Shown one piece after another: positions 46,214-52,200 of a stretch of 64,000 nt of DNA. The DNA is from Coraliomargaritaceae bacterium. GTDB lineage: Bacteria > Verrucomicrobiota > Verrucomicrobiia > Opitutales > Coraliomargaritaceae. Numbering within the stretch: the first letter of the stretch is position 1; every line of letters starts with the position of its first letter. The stretch spans positions 127,803 to 191,802 of the forward strand of contig CBFHKU010000003.1 of the NCBI GenBank assembly GCA_965656495.1. Reading direction: 5' to 3'. The position numbers are program-made.

Positions 46214-49200
46214 TTCATGGTGGGGCAGGGTGAGAAGCCACGAAGTGGGTTTGACGGAGCGAAGCGGAGATGGGCCAACGCGGTGCGTTGTTCTCGCAGA
46301 GATGCCGCAGGCACCAACCCCACCGGGCCCACCATTCATGGTGGGGCGGGGTGAGAAGCCACGAAGTCGGTTTGACGGAGCGCACCTCGCTGGGGTGGGG
46401 GTTGCGTCTGGGTCGTTTATTTGGTTCGATTCCTGCATAATGGAGGATCGTATGACTACCCTGATTTCTGAGTTTATGGCGGCGCATGCCTTGCCGGATT
46501 CCTTTGCGGCGCTTGCCTCTGAGACCTATATTCCGTTGGCGGAGCGGGTGGCGGGTTGGCAAGGTGCTGAGGGGGGTCCTTTGGGTTTGGCATTAAACGG
46601 CGGGCAGGGGACGGGTAAATCGACTTTGGCGGCCTTTTTGAGGGTTTATTTGGAGCGTTTTCACGGTTTGCGGGTTTTTGTGCTGTCGTTGGACGATCTG
46701 TATTTAACGCGGGCGGAGCGTGCTGAATTGGGTGAGCGGGTGCACCCGCTGCTCGCGACGCGTGGGGTGCCGGGCACGCACGATCTTGGGATTGGCATGG
46801 ATGTTGCAAATGGGTGCTTAAGCCATGAACACACAACGATCCATTCCCCTGTCTTTGAGAAAGCAAATGACGACCGAGCGCCCCGCGAGGTTTGGCCGGT
46901 TATTTCGGCTCCGGTCGATCTTCTGATTTTGGAGGGTTGGTGTGTGGGCGCGCTCCCTGAACCGGAGGCGGCGCTCGCTGAACCGATCAATGAACTGGAA
47001 CGCGAGGATGACCCAAAGGCGTCATGGCGGACTTACGTTAACGAGCAACTCAAAATGAATTACCAAACTTTCTTTTCCTTATTCTCCCGGCGGGTGATGT
47101 TGAAAGCCCCGGATTTTGATTGTATTTTGCGTTGGCGGACCAAGCAGGAACATAAATTACGGGAAAAATTGTCGGCTTCGGGAACCGCGCATGCCGGTTT
47201 GATGGATGATGCCGCGGTGGCTCGCTTCATTATGCACTACGAGCGTTTGACGCGTTGGATGCTCGCGGAAATGCCCGCCCGGGTCGATGCCTGCATTGAA
47301 TTAAACGAAGCGCATGGGGCCGAGCGCCTTGTGTTCCGGGACGATGGTTAAGACCGCATGGTTGATTTGCACGGATCTGGATGCCTCGCTTCTGGATGCG
47401 GCATACGAGTGGGCCGGCGCGGAGGTTGCCCTGAGTGCGGTGCGCGCCCTGGGCGTTCCTCTGGTTCTGAATTCAAGCAAGACCTTTGCGGAGATGGCGC
47501 CCTTTGCCGCAGCGCTCGATCCACTCGCGCCGGTGATTGCGGAAAACGGCACTGCGATCGGTTATCCGCAATGTTGGGGCTTGGGGTCAGCAGATGCGAA
47601 GGTGGATTCCTACAGTGTTGAATACTGCGGTATGAAGCGGACAGAATTATTGCGAATCGCGCACGATCTGCGGGAGCGGAAGGGGTATCGCTTTCGGGGT
47701 TTTTCGGAGATGGAAGCGGAAGCATTGACCGAGACGCTGGGCCTCGACGCCAAGCAGGCGCACGCCGCGTTGGAGCGACACGGCAGCGAGCCGATCGATT
47801 GGCTGGACTCGGTGGAAGCGCTTGAGGATTTCAGCGATTCGTTGGCAGGGGAGGGCATCACGCTGGTGCGGGGCGGGCGTTTTGAGCACCTGATGCCATC
47901 GCATCAAAGCAAGGGCACCGCGCTGATGGATGTCCTGCAACGCTACCGCTCGCGTCAACCTGAGTTGCAATGGAAGGTCCTTGCGATTGGCGACAGCCCC
48001 AACGATTGCTCCATGCTCGAAATCGCCGATCAAGCCCTTGTCATCCCCAACCCCAAGCGCGGAACCCTCAAACTAAAACGCCCGGATTACGAAGTGGCAC
48101 CTGCTCCGGGGCCGGAGGGCTGGGGTATCGCCGTTCTCAATTTCCTATCAACCCAAGTTTCATCTACCACTAACTACTACAAGCGCCATGAGTGACTTCC
48201 ACCAAAGCGGCATCATTACCAACTTCCACAATCTTGCCACCCGTTCGCCCGAAAGCCTGGAGCAGGATGTCTTTAAACTCTCACGCAAGAATCCCGTTGG
48301 GCTGATCCTGCCCTCGCTGTATTCCGAGCTCGAGGGGGTTGCCCTGCCAAAAATCATCGATGTCCTCAGCGAGATTGATTATCTGGAGGAAATTGTGATT
48401 GGCCTCGATCAAGCCGACGAAGACCAATACCGCTACGCCCTGAAATTTTTCGACCGCCTGCCGCAGGGGCACAAGGTGCTTTGGAATGGCGGACCCCGCT
48501 TGCGTGCAATCGACGCGACCCTTAAGTCATTTAACCTCGCCCCGCTCAACGAGGGCAAGGGTCGCAATGTCTGGTACCTTCTCGGCTATCTTCTGGCGCG
48601 CAAGCGTTCCCAGGTCATTGCGATCCACGATTGCGACATCCTAACGTATAACCGCGAGATGTTGACGCGTCTGATTTACCCCGTTCTCAACCCCAGTCTC
48701 AATTTCAGTTACAGCAAGGGCTACTACGCCCGCATTGCGGAAAACCGCATGAACGGCCGGGTCTGCCGCCTGCTCATTACCCCGCTGCTCCGCGCCCTTA
48801 AGAAAATCTGTGGCGAGAATGATTACCTCGAATACATGGACAGCTTTAAATACGCGCTCTCCGGAGAATTTGCTTTTAACCGCGATATCGTTGCGGACAT
48901 CCGTATTCCCTCCGACTGGGGTCTCGAAATGGGAATGCTTTCCGAAATGTACCGCAATCATCAGAAGAATAAAATCTGCCAAGTCGACATCGCTGATTTC
49001 TACGACCACAAGCATCAGGATCTCTCGCAGGCGGATGCCAAGCGCGGCCTCGCGAAAATGAGTGCCGACATCTCAAAGTCCCTCTTCCGCAAGCTCGCGA
49101 CCTACGGCGAGGTATTCTCCAGTGCAAAAATCCGGACCGTCAAAGCCGCCTATTACCGCACCGCCCTCGACCTAATCGACAGTTACGAAAACGATGCCAC

Positions 49201-52200
49201 CATGAACGGACTCGCCTACGACCGCCATAAAGAGGTCCAGTCGGTCGAGGTCTTCTCTGAAAGCATCATGCGCGCGGGGGATGAATTTCTCAACCAACCC
49301 ACCGACACGCCGTTTATTCCGAGCTGGAAACGCGTCCGTTCCGCAGTGCCCGATATCGAGAACCAACTCCTGCAGGCGGTCGAGGAGGACATGGAGGAAT
49401 TCAAGCCCAAGACCCGCCGGGTTGCGAAAGGCAGTAAATTGCGACAGGCAATCCAACAACACCTCGTCGAGATTTACCCGGAGGAAGATGCCCCCGCCCT
49501 CGCCGAAAAAATCCTCGGCATCGCCGGTTTTGGGCGCAAGGACCCCATCCTCTCACGCGGCCAAAATAAATGGACCGAGGCCGACACCGTTCTCATCACT
49601 TACGGTGACTCCATCCTGCAGGAAGGCGAAGCGCCCCTCAAGACCCTCGCGCGTTTTGCCGGCAAGCATTTGGGCCAGACCATCAGCACCCTGCACGTCC
49701 TGCCCTTTTTCCCTTACAGTTCCGACGACGGTTTTTCCGTTATTGATTACAAAGAGGTTAACCCTGCCCTTGGAAATTGGGCTGATTTTGAGCAACTCAA
49801 TGCCCAGTTCGAAACCATGGCGGATCTCGTCATCAATCATTGCTCCGCGGAATCCGAATGGTTCCAAAACTTCTGCCAGGATAAGACGCCCGGTGCGGGA
49901 TATTTCATCGAGGTGGATGATGCCTTTGACGCGAGTGGGGTGGTGCGCCCCCGCTCCAGCGCACTCTTCCGCGAGGTGGAAACCAATTCCGGAAACAAGA
50001 AAGTCTGGTGCACCTTCAGTCACGACCAGGTCGATTTAAACTTCGCCAACCCCGAAGTCCTCTTTGAAGTCATCTCGATTCTCAAATTTTTCACCGAGAA
50101 GAAGATCAAATATTTCCGTCTCGATGCCATTGCCTTTCTCTGGAAACGCTCCGGAACCAGTTGCGTCCATTTAAAAGAGACCCACGAAATCATCAAGCTC
50201 CTGCGCCTCGTCCTTGAAAACCTCGAACCGCAGGCCGTCCTGATCACCGAGACCAACGTCCCCAACCGCGAAAACCTCAGCTACTTCGGCAATGATAACG
50301 AAGCCCATTTGATCTATAACTTTTCCCTGCCACCCCTGCTCATTCACGCCCTCCTCAAAGGCGATGCCACCCCTCTGAAGAATTGGATGATGTCGATGCC
50401 CCCCGCCCGACGCGGGCGCAGTTACCTCAATTTCATTGCCTCACACGATGGTATTGGGGTGCGTCCCCTTGAGGGCCTCGTGAGCGGAGCCGAGCAAACC
50501 GCGCTCCTCGAAACCCTCGAGTCCTTTGGCGGCACTATTTCAAAACGCACCAACACCGACGGTTCTGAATCGCCCTACGAGGTAAACATCAGCCTCTTCG
50601 ACGCCCTGCGCGGTACCATTGCGAAGGGGGCGGACCAGCACCAGCAAGCGCGTTATCTTTGTGCCCATACCATTCTCCTCGCGCTCGAAGGCATCCCGGC
50701 GTTCTACATCCACAGCCTCCTCGCCACCGAAAATGATGACCAACGGCGCGAAGCAACCGGTCATGCCCGCGCGGTCAACCGACACCAGTGGAAGTTCGAC
50801 GCACTCATGGAGCAACTCGACGACCCCGAGAGCCATCACCACTACCTTTTCTACGAACTCAAGCGCCGCATCGCGATCCGCAAGCAACAGATCGCCTTCC
50901 ACCCCAACGCCACCCAGCTCACCCTTCACCTCGGCGATCAACTCTTTGCCTTCTGGCGCGAAAGCCCCAACCGTTATCAGAGCGTCTTCGCCATCAACAA
51001 CATTTCCGACCAAACCCAAACCGTCGCCCTGCATGAGCTCAACCTCATCGGCACGGAAAATTGGCGCGACCTTCTCAGCGATCAACACTACGACCCCGGT
51101 CAAAAAACCATTGAATTGCCGCCTTATGGCTCCCTTTGGATCACCAATTCCTAGGTTTTGAGGCCTTCGGCACGCCCGCTTTGTAATCTTGACAGCCCTT
51201 GCCCGTCACCCTTTTATTTACAGCTTTTCCAATCACTCAAACGTCACGCTCGTCATGAAACCCACTTTCCGTCCTTCCAAGATCCGTCGCGCTCGTAAAT
51301 TCGGCTACCGCGCCCGCAAGGCTACCCATGCCGGCCGCAAGGTGCTCGCCGCCCGTCGCGCCAAGGGTCGTCATCGCCTCGCCGCTTAGGCACAGGCAAG
51401 CACGGTTGTTGCCATGGCTGTCCCGGCGCAACAACGACTGCGCACACAAAGCGATTTTCAACAAGTCCGCAGTCGAGGCACTCGTATGCACTGCGGGCTT
51501 TTTATTGCCCAATATTTAAAGCACGAGCATGAAAACGCCAGCCATCCAGCCCCGCGCCTCGGTGTCATTGCCAGTCGCCGTGTCGGTAACGCGGTCAAAC
51601 GCAACTACGGCAAACGACTCATCCGCAACCTCTTTCGCAAACACCAGACCCTTATCCCAGCCGGATACGACCTCGTTATAGTCCTCCGCTCAAATTTCGC
51701 TTCGGTTCCCTTTGCCGATTTGGAATCCCGTTTTCAAGAGCTTTGCCAAAGCATTTCCACCACTGCATGAAACCCGCCCCTCCAAGCCTTCCCGCTCAGG
51801 CTGCTGCCCTCATGGTGCGTTGCTATCAATTGCTGCTCTCGCCCGTCAAGTACGCCCTCTTTGGCCCCGCCTGCGGTTGCCGCTTCCATCCCACCTGTTC
51901 CGCTTATACCCGCGAAGCCTTCCTCCGCCACGGATTCTTCCGTGGTTTCCTGCTCGCCCTCCGTCGCATCCTGCGTTGCCATCCATGGCATCCCGGTGGA
52001 CCCGATCCCGTCCCAAATTTGAAAACTTGCTCGCCAGACGAGCCTGCACCACATTTCAACAAAGTATCTAATGGATAAGAAAAATACCTTCTTCGGTCTC
52101 CTCTTCCTCGCGGCAGGCTTCCTCGTCATGTTTTGGCAGGGTGCGCAACTCAGCGACGCGCCAACGCCAACGCCTACCGAGCCCACCGCTTCGGAAGCCG

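Follow-up and report, generated by a model that had tools for sequence, protein, structure and literature searches.

Within a 64-kb window of contig CBFHKU010000003.1 from a Coraliomargaritaceae bacterium (Verrucomicrobiota), with window positions serving as coordinates throughout, we identified an operon that likely constitutes a self-contained unit for making and recycling glucosylglycerate (GG), with a fusion that arose by a probable single stop loss and with a probable sigma-54 promoter. The gene order, all on the forward strand, is GLYK-type glycerate kinase, HAD-IIB phosphatase (GpgP), and a polypeptide that joins the synthase GpgS to the GG phosphorylase GGaP. The genome-wide survey's note had placed the whole make-and-break cycle of GG at this locus, and our analysis agrees: the four activities were recognized by homology, and both catalytic centres of the fusion are conserved.

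Operon boundaries, kinase and phosphatase

The host genome, 2.06 Mb in size, is that of an uncultured marine Opitutia (Verrucomicrobiota). The upstream edge of the operon is marked by a tRNA-Met gene (46138..46213, + strand; detected by ARAGORN, Rfam tRNA 72.9 bits) and the downstream edge by rpmH (L34; 51255..51389, + strand; PF00468, E 7.2e-19), which is followed by rnpA and yidC. In a scan of the flanks at 14 loci, the genes bordering the operon varied between taxa, and we therefore consider it a self-contained module. The kinase stop and the phosphatase start overlap by 8 nt (ATGGTTAA, 47344..47351), as do the phosphatase stop and the start of the fusion (ATGAGTGA, 48188..48195); both sequences were read directly, and the overlaps reported by the survey were thus verified at both junctions.

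The first gene (46452..47351, + strand) encodes a GLYK/TDA10-type P-loop kinase, a probable D-glycerate 3-kinase. The survey had called it glycerate-kinase-like; our assignment derives from matches to D-glycerate 3-kinases in the PDB (6ckg, E 1.5e-18; 7xpc, E 3.4e-17; yeast 1odf, E 1.5e-15) and from the Walker A motif GGQGTGKS in its translation; no Pfam or NCBIfam model scored above its cut-off on the kinase, and no curated model names it. That its product would be 3-phosphoglycerate (3-PGA) and not 2-PGA is an assumption taken over from the GLYK family. The gene most likely starts at ATG 46452 rather than at 46440, the start given previously, since the former is the sole start conserved in an alignment of six upstream sequences. 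The second gene (47344..48195, + strand) encodes a HAD-IIB glucosyl-3-phosphoglycerate phosphatase (GpgP) of the MPGP family, with the HAD motifs TDLD and GDSPND. Its 193.4 bits on TIGR01486 exceed the cut-off of 164.75, in line with its earlier classification as a glucosyl/mannosyl-3-phosphoglycerate phosphatase.

The fused synthase and phosphorylase

The third gene (48188..51154, + strand) is a single open reading frame of 988 aa in which both modules are complete, so that the claim of a synthase and a phosphorylase in one polypeptide stands. The GpgS module (residues 1-405; 48188..49402, + strand), assigned as a retaining GT-A glycosyltransferase with the motif H147-D148-C149-D150, aligned over residues 3-405 with positions 2-402 of the 402-position NCBIfam model NF040724 (GpgS_Meth; 382.9 bits, E 1.6e-114). 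This full-length coverage and the HDCD motif, which aligns with the DSD of mycobacterial GpgS, uphold the designation as a Methanococcoides-type GpgS. The score falls far short of the equivalog cut-off (700), and therefore the donor or even the acceptor could differ. Further matches were obtained with NF010496 of NCBIfam (E 3.8e-18) and, in a PDB sequence search, with mycobacterial GpgS 7pdo/7p5l (E 1.8e-4), while Pfam matched nothing in residues 1-417. The full-length model match and the DXD motif are shared with GpgS of the Methanococcoides burtonii, Persephonella marina, and Rhodopirellula baltica type. Characterised NF040724-type enzymes occur unfused, at ~400 aa (for R. baltica GpgS, passages of PMC3736172), whereas the present GpgS is fused and reaches 383 bits against the cut-off.

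The GGaP module (residues 418-988; 49439..51151, + strand) belongs to GH13_18 and carries D646, E688, D754, and E798. E. coli YcjM (residues 1-558) aligned end to end with residues 418-985 at 38% identity (E 3e-135), and PF00128 spans residues 499-716. Passages of PMC7178133 give a (T/S)ETN motif and a loop-A Glu as GGaP signatures; here they are represented by TETN at 687-690 and by E798 within PYEVN (796-800), and the survey's GGaP assignment, made with the TETN motif, was retained. The GG phosphorylases (EC 2.4.1.352, GH13_18) of E. coli (YcjM), Meiothermus silvanus, and Spirochaeta thermophila likewise have TETN, the loop-A Glu, and the catalytic Asp/Glu/Asp, but are stand-alone proteins of ~555 aa, and YcjM belongs to the sugar-catabolic ycj cluster, which has an ABC transporter and no GpgS.

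Between the modules lies a linker of 12 residues (KPKTRRVAKGSK, residues 406-417; 49403..49438, + strand), which comparison with the junctions of split loci places where gpgS once stopped and ggaP began. It is unconserved in an alignment of 30 fused homologues (58-87% identity), in all of which H147/D148/C149/D150, R644/D646, T687-N690, H753/D754, and Y797/E798 are invariant. AlphaFold2 (30 homologues) modelled the fusion at pLDDT 78.5 and pTM 0.64, with pLDDT below 50 at linker residues 409-415; at this pTM the placement of the domains relative to each other is predicted with moderate confidence. Split forms in related loci show that gpgS and ggaP can be separate genes, but no evidence was found that assembly or a frameshift had joined two genes in our contig. 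We rejected such an artefact as having next to no probability: the uninterrupted fused frame occurs in 15 independent genome loci and, in a sample of 401 Verrucomicrobiota genomes, in 17 without internal stops, and the best 120 protein clusters, which come from several sources, all measure 987-1015 aa at 100% query coverage.

The low equivalog score of the GpgS module would also suit a different product or direction, with the GH13_18 module synthesizing GG in vivo (G1P + glycerate -> GG) or the GpgS product feeding a larger solute such as mannosylglucosylglycerate. Passages of PMC11009771 describe the GGaP reaction as reversible and its specific activity towards synthesis as high, and Cunha et al. 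(PMC3736172, in part) report that Coraliomargarita akajimensis, a related verrucomicrobium, has an MggA homologue. We nevertheless deem this very unlikely, as the glycerate kinase of the same operon would drain the acceptor needed for synthesis and no mannosyltransferase gene was found inside the operon at the window locus.

Split relatives and the origin of the fusion

Among 67 related genome loci, gpgS and ggaP were fused in 15, separate but abutting on one strand in 47, and convergent in one, while four loci had a single module. The order kinase-phosphatase-GpgS-GGaP was found in 12 of the fused and 39 of the split loci. The four-gene split operon (kinase-gpgP-gpgS-ggaP) occurs in marine Gammaproteobacteria, whose operons of this kind (47 loci) share the gene order of ours at 50-61% identity per module. 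Clusters of GpgS, HAD-type GpgP, GH13_18 GGaP, and glycerate kinase, with the same GGaP signatures as the present fusion, are also known from Synechococcus PCC 7002 (A2021-A2023), the Prochlorococcus GG operon, and Marinobacter (Franceus, Pinel & Desmet 2017, as summarised in passages of PMC7178133, PMC10873239, and PMC11631117). Unlike in these split clusters, our gpgS and ggaP form one frame with a 12-residue linker. The survey had treated the arrangement as special, a view we gave up given that the four activities cluster unfused in 47 of the 67 loci and that passages of PMC7178133 already record that GGaP is associated with glycerate kinase, GpgS, and GpgP. The novelty is confined to the fusion, of which a full-text literature search returned no published description, the key 2017 paper lying outside its reach. 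Marinobacter, Pseudomonas, and Stenotrophomonas have a fused glucosylglycerol-phosphate phosphatase/synthase, GgpPS, adjoined by a GH13_18 glucosylglycerol phosphorylase (PMC10873239). Like the system described here, this is a marine heterotroph's pathway to a compatible solute, with fused enzymes and a linked GH13_18 phosphorylase, but GgpPS unites two consecutive biosynthetic steps, whereas the present fusion unites a biosynthetic with a degradative enzyme.

In the split forms gpgS ends in ...EF(xx)* and ggaP starts 0-10 nt away in most of the 30 junctions listed. In each of two trees with 74 rows the fused forms grouped as a single clade, which comprised 25 rows for GGaP (SH-aLRT 98) and 24 rows for GpgS (support 98). 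Among the best 150 of 1,617 representative GpgS-module matches just one, the fused cluster, exceeded 441 aa. These sequence comparisons suggest that the fusion derives from a four-gene kinase-gpgP-gpgS-ggaP operon in which the gpgS stop codon was lost, probably once since the fused forms are a single clade in both trees. Because the two genes abut so closely in most listed split forms, such a loss would be a cheap event, possibly neutral in origin. Once formed, the fused gene would have spread to marine bacteria of the PVC group and to others; it was detected in Verrucomicrobiota, Kiritimatiellota, Planctomycetota, Lentisphaerota, and others, where the taxon labels of MAGs may include binning errors.

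The wider distribution of GGaP bears on whether the operon might mainly serve the uptake and catabolism of GG from marine cyanobacteria, GGaP and the kinase feeding G1P and 3-PGA into glycolysis and GpgS and GpgP being secondary. Of the 401 Verrucomicrobiota genomes sampled, about 65 carry a separate GGaP-like gene (40-49% identity) for which the query matched no GpgS portion, many organisms not thought to produce GG have GGaP (passages of PMC7178133), and in Prochlorococcus GG ranks among the major solutes (passages of PMC11631117). Yet transporter genes are absent from the operon and its immediate surroundings, at the window locus as well as at the 14 flank-scanned loci. The catalytic residues of GpgS show no variation, and its module is better conserved than the GGaP module (e.g., 87% versus 77% in locus L005). 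With the biosynthetic phosphatase also present in 14 of the 15 fused loci, we hold a mainly catabolic role to be quite unlikely.

Upstream element and the predicted GG cycle

A sigma-54-like -24/-12 element (TGGTTCGATTCCTGCA, 46422..46437, + strand) with GG and GC doublets 10 nt apart lies 14 nt before the kinase ATG and matches 9 of 12 consensus positions. The block TTTGG(T/C)TCGA(T/A)TC(C/T)TGCA is invariant in six of six aligned Opitutia-type loci, while its flanks diverge. Such elements occur upstream in nine of ten fused-clade regions, against 0.11 expected per 300 nt; the same scan found none in L013, and 28 of 38 split loci are without one. The host genome encodes rpoN and two enhancer-binding proteins, and its best canonical intergenic sigma-54 motif lies ahead of an ammonium transporter. 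The element is so near the kinase ATG that the mRNA leader would be ~4 nt, which counts against a promoter, as do the imperfect consensus match and the loci lacking such an element. We infer that operon transcription probably starts from this putative sigma-54-type promoter. The conservation of the element in relatives suggests expression tied to nitrogen status, which would fit GG as a nitrogen-free anionic solute.

By homology, the GpgS module would move glucose from NDP-glucose to D-3-phosphoglycerate, GpgP would strip the phosphate to give GG, the GH13_18 module would phosphorolyse GG to alpha-glucose 1-phosphate and D-glycerate, and the kinase would turn glycerate back into 3-phosphoglycerate. 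ADP-glucose is a plausible donor because glgC is present in the genome (422.8 bits, cut-off 424.9); in a profile search of the same genome no galU scored above its cut-off.

Since gpgS and ggaP share one frame, the opposing activities cannot be expressed separately. This exclusion of differential expression, the 12-residue linker that holds the modules close, and the stable retention of the fused form in several phyla, with both active sites invariant in 30 homologues of as little as 58% identity, could point to a regulatory device as predicted by the survey, a GG rheostat whose modules touch and are reciprocally controlled, one being on when the other is off. PFK-2/FBPase-2 and Rel/SpoT are likewise single polypeptides that make and remove one small molecule, and their reciprocal regulation is documented. 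These act on signalling molecules, whereas the two steps of the present fusion are not direct reversals because GpgP lies between them. Moreover, the linker is unconserved and modelled at low confidence, the pTM gives no confident inter-domain geometry, 47 of 67 loci do the job with the split operon, and stop loss between abutting genes may be neutral, all of which makes a rheostat unlikely. In the Prochlorococcus GG operon, by comparison, synthesis and recycling genes are differentially expressed (passages of PMC11631117).

A point against the make-and-recycle unit that we favour is that, if all steps were co-expressed and not regulated, each turn would waste about two ATP in a futile cycle. 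One open reading frame yields both activities in a fixed 1:1 ratio, so that whether GG accumulates or is removed on balance has to be decided post-translationally, in the simplest case by the levels of Pi, G1P, NDP-glucose, and 3-PGA and by ionic strength.

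Module composition of the fusion protein

The genome-wide survey's note had described the 988-residue open reading frame at 48188-51154 as glucosyl-3-phosphoglycerate synthase (GpgS) fused to glucosylglycerate phosphorylase (GGaP), and our analysis bore out both the fusion and its description: the Methanococcoides-type GpgS model is covered, E. coli YcjM aligns end to end, and the GGaP signatures are in place. Residues 3-405 of the N-terminal module match positions 2-402 of the 402 in NF040724, the Methanococcoides-type GpgS model, with 382.9 bits, which lies under the equivalog cut-off of 700 bits but is still by far the best score of any family. 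We classify this module as putatively GpgS-like by function and not as an NF040724 equivalog. Within its HDCD sequence (residues 147-150), D148-C149-D150 aligns to the D-S-D of the mycobacterial GpgS 7pdo. The DXD motif of retaining GT-A enzymes, which serves metal and nucleotide-sugar binding, is present and was invariant in all 30 fused homologues aligned (58-87% identity). Because the module is linked to a phosphorylase specific for glucosylglycerate (GG) and to a HAD-IIB phosphatase (GpgP), its predicted substrates are NDP-glucose and D-3-phosphoglycerate.

In the C-terminal module, residues 418-985 aligned end to end with YcjM (38% identity, E 3e-135), a glucosylglycerate phosphorylase by both its annotation and the literature. 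The GH13 catalytic positions D646 (FRLDAI), E688, and D754 (SHDG), which from the GH13 family we take to be the Asp nucleophile, the Glu acid/base, and the second Asp, are all invariant in the fused homologues. PMC7178133 names two signatures of these enzymes, the sequence (T/S)ETN and, in loop A, a Glu that takes the place of Gln. TETN is found at residues 687-690, opposite ITETNVP of YcjM, and did not vary in any of the 30 fused homologues. The loop-A Glu lies in PYEVN (796-800), opposite SPYEIN of YcjM, with Y797 and E798 invariant. By these motifs the C-terminal module is a predicted GH13_18 GGaP (EC 2.4.1.352), which would strictly phosphorolyse 2-O-alpha-glucosylglycerate and leave sucrose untouched.

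The AlphaFold2 model built on the 30-homologue alignment contains two folded modules (pLDDT 78.5, pTM 0.64), with low confidence in the linker and in two loops of the GpgS module. The 12-residue linker (406-417) is not conserved across the 30 homologues, and we saw no evidence that the modules share a defined interface. Foldseek searches with the whole model retrieved GH13 enzymes only.

No Pfam model matches the GpgS half, which explains why the synthase has been overlooked in annotation. Hundreds of fused proteins carry generic names only, 'sucrose phosphorylase' or 'alpha-amylase family', names on which the survey too had remarked, and one database record is named after the synthase half alone. 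That GGaP occurs together with glycerate kinase, GpgS, and GpgP has already been reported (PMC7178133), and PMC10873239 and PMC11631117 document the cluster with gpgS and ggaP as separate genes (the split form) in Synechococcus PCC 7002, Prochlorococcus, and Marinobacter. A full-text literature search, whose reach did not extend to Franceus et al. 2017 or the reviews by Empadinhas and da Costa, returned no description of the fused enzyme. The fusion is best filed as a gene-fusion variant of the known GG operon, in which the fused enzyme itself is the only part not found in print.

The operon and its upstream region

The operon consists of three overlapping genes in the same orientation, located between a tRNA-Met (46138-46213), which forms its upstream boundary, and rpmH-rnpA-yidC. 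A P-loop kinase gene (46440 or 46452 to 47351) is followed by a HAD-IIB phosphatase gene (47344-48195) and by the fusion gene. The 8-nt overlaps claimed for both junctions were confirmed by direct reading of the sequence, ATGGTTAA and ATGAGTGA. The kinase carries a Walker A motif and matched three solved D-glycerate 3-kinases of the GLYK family (E 1.5e-18, 3.4e-17, and 1.5e-15), while no Pfam or NCBIfam model scored above its cut-off. It is probably a GLYK/TDA10-type D-glycerate 3-kinase, with substrate and product predicted by similarity to these structures. The start called at 46440 is not conserved, and the ATG at 46452 is the sole start conserved among six aligned relatives; the GGAGG ahead of this ATG in the window is likewise not conserved among relatives. 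The assignment of gene 2 to the mannosyl/glucosyl-3-phosphoglycerate phosphatase family was upheld (TIGR01486, 193.4 bits against a cut-off of 164.75), and the HAD motifs DLD and GDSPND were found in its translation. Its score on the MpgP equivalogs was below the cut-off (185 versus 353).

Base composition and conservation vary along the operon. Coding-strand GC skew is +0.18 in the kinase, +0.08 in the phosphatase, -0.12 in the GpgS part, and -0.21 in the GGaP part, the negative values resembling those of rnpA and yidC, and conservation among relatives is much lower for the kinase and phosphatase than for the fusion. Immediately upstream of the tRNA lie a gene for a small RRM-type RNA-binding protein (45168-45473, + strand) and an ORF6N-domain gene (45482-46039, - strand). 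A 67-nt direct repeat occurs at 46195-46261 and 46316-46382, its copies 97% identical and spaced 121 nt apart; copy one starts with the final 19 nt of tRNA-Met. The repeat has the appearance of an att-type site duplicated by an element that integrated at the tRNA. The same tRNA-Met is present in the related loci L005 and L006, farther upstream and with other genes intervening.

An Rfam scan of 45000-52200 found no RNA element except the tRNA, and the counts from simple searches for promoters and terminators did not improve on those from shuffled sequences. Upstream of the kinase, at 46422-46437, we found a -24/-12-like element, TGGTTCGATTCCTGCA. The sigma-54 consensus is TGGCAC-N5-TTGCW, with the GG and GC doublets 10 nt apart; the element matches it at 9 of 12 positions in the window and at 10-11 of 12 in loci L005-L007. 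The block is invariant in all six aligned Opitutia-type loci, amid intergenic DNA that diverges. Elements with at least 9 of 12 matches were located upstream of the kinase in nine of ten regions of the fused clade and, among split regions, in 10 of 38, the expectation from the window's own + strand being 0.11 per 300 nt. The genome encodes RpoN (386.6 bits, above cut-off) and two response-regulator activators (EBPs), one of which best matches NtrC, with 492 bits, under the cut-off of 558.6. Against a sigma-54 promoter stand the modest score in the window and an element unusually close to the ATG, implying a 5' leader of about 4 nt. A sigma-54 (RpoN) dependent promoter that would link the GG operon to nitrogen is a possible reading of these sequence patterns. 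The best canonical intergenic sigma-54 motif of the same genome, TGGCACGCGGAATGCT (G000:C6:85489, outside the window), stands 92 nt ahead of an ammonium transporter gene. We also asked whether the conserved block upstream of the kinase could be what is left of a tRNA T-arm (GGTTCGATTCC) and rejected this reading, as only two stem pairs are possible, the likeness is lost in L007, and ARAGORN finds no tRNA there.

Distribution and origin of the fused form

One genome per species was scanned, yielding 67 loci whose ORF continuity was then checked. A single uninterrupted fused ORF was found in 15 loci, labelled as Opitutia, Coraliomargaritaceae, Puniceicoccaceae, Kiritimatiellaceae, Pontiellaceae, Mariniblastus, and Planctomycetota. 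In 47 loci, nearly all Gammaproteobacteria by record title (Alteromonas, Halieaceae, Glaciecola, Neptunicella, and others), gpgS and ggaP are separate, adjacent, and on the same strand. The two genes are convergent in one locus (Ruegeria), and four loci hold a single module only. Kinase and phosphatase genes lie upstream in 12/15 fused and 39/47 split loci, most of the remainder being truncated by contig ends.

Split gpgS terminates in '...EF(xx)*', with the ggaP start 0-10 nt away in most of the 30 junctions inspected; often a stop codon alone stands between the two genes, which share a frame. The window reads through at this point (EEF-KPKTRRVAKGSK-LRQAIQQHL). In many Alteromonadaceae and Halieaceae loci the genes are in frame and separated by one stop codon plus 0-3 nt (L022, L025-L027, L030-L034, L036-L038, L058, L062, L064, and L065, at about 7222-7230), so that one substitution, or stop-codon readthrough, would yield a fused protein. 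Quick maximum-likelihood trees placed all fused forms in a single clade nested among split forms, both for the GGaP part, where the root was set on YcjM and 25 of the 74 rows are fused (SH-aLRT 98), and for the GpgS part, where 24 of 74 are (SH-aLRT 98). These trees include nine additional fused proteins picked by taxon names and exclude rows with fewer than 350 (N part) or 480 (C part) aligned residues. The simplest reading of junctions and trees is that one stop codon was lost and that the fusion then spread both vertically and horizontally, with the proviso that MAGs may not all be labelled with the right taxon.

Queried against 1.84 billion representative proteins, the GpgS module gave 1,617 matches; among the best 150, one was longer than 441 residues, and it represents the fused clade. 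No larger fusion was seen among proteins of at least 1730 aa, which is weak evidence; in a search whose range also took in proteins of 1016-1729 aa, the best 120 clusters were all 987-1015 aa long. In 401 sampled genomes of Verrucomicrobiota, the window's phylum, the full-length fused gene occurred in 17, and stand-alone GpgS in a few. In about 65 of the 401, a GGaP-like gene stands alone (40-49% identity to residues ~418-986), and the fusion query matched no GpgS part there. This fits the remark in PMC7178133 that many presumed non-producers of GG possess GGaP. Database names place the fused form in the cultivable genera Rubritalea, Lentimonas, Lentisphaera, and Haloferula.

The predicted glucosylglycerate cycle and its control

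By homology, the three genes would encode a complete GG cycle. The GpgS module would convert NDP-glucose and 3-phosphoglycerate (3-PGA) to glucosyl-3-phosphoglycerate (GPG), GpgP would dephosphorylate GPG to GG, the GGaP module would cleave GG with Pi to glucose 1-phosphate (G1P) and D-glycerate, and the kinase would return D-glycerate to 3-PGA with ATP. Since glgC of the same genome scores at its cut-off (422.8 versus 424.9 bits) and no galU scores above its own, ADP-glucose is plausible as the donor and also as the route by which G1P is re-activated. The operon flanks hold no transporter and are not conserved among taxa, and Pfam searches of 48 flanking ORFs from 14 loci revealed no transporter or regulator in common. 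This pattern is more in keeping with making and recycling GG internally than with scavenging it. In an Oleiphilaceae genome (locus L014), genes at 1508-3985 and 9921-11663 for glyceraldehyde-3-phosphate dehydrogenase, pyruvate kinase, and phosphoglucomutase, enzymes that handle the products of the cycle, flank the split GG operon.

GG is a nitrogen-free anionic solute of abundant marine bacteria. How cells escape futile cycling while expressing its synthesis and phosphorolysis genes together was a question raised by the discoverers of GGaP (PMC7178133), and the fusion takes this problem to its limit, as its enzyme ratio is fixed. In the Prochlorococcus GG operon, transcripts for synthesis and recycling can shift in opposite directions (passages of PMC11631117). 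A carrier of the fusion, unlike Prochlorococcus, cannot shift synthase and phosphorylase transcripts separately, so control must act post-translationally, on the proteins, whether by plain mass action or by cross-talk of the two modules. Since the fusion occurs in cultivable genera, comparing fused enzymes directly with split ones is feasible. We advance as a long shot that the fusion might act as a single-polypeptide osmolyte switch, with allosterically coupled modules flipped between synthesis and recycling by salt, Pi, or metabolites of nitrogen status, and with NtrC/sigma-54 driving transcription under nitrogen limitation. If true, the switch would make GG the first compatible solute with a bifunctional make-and-break enzyme.
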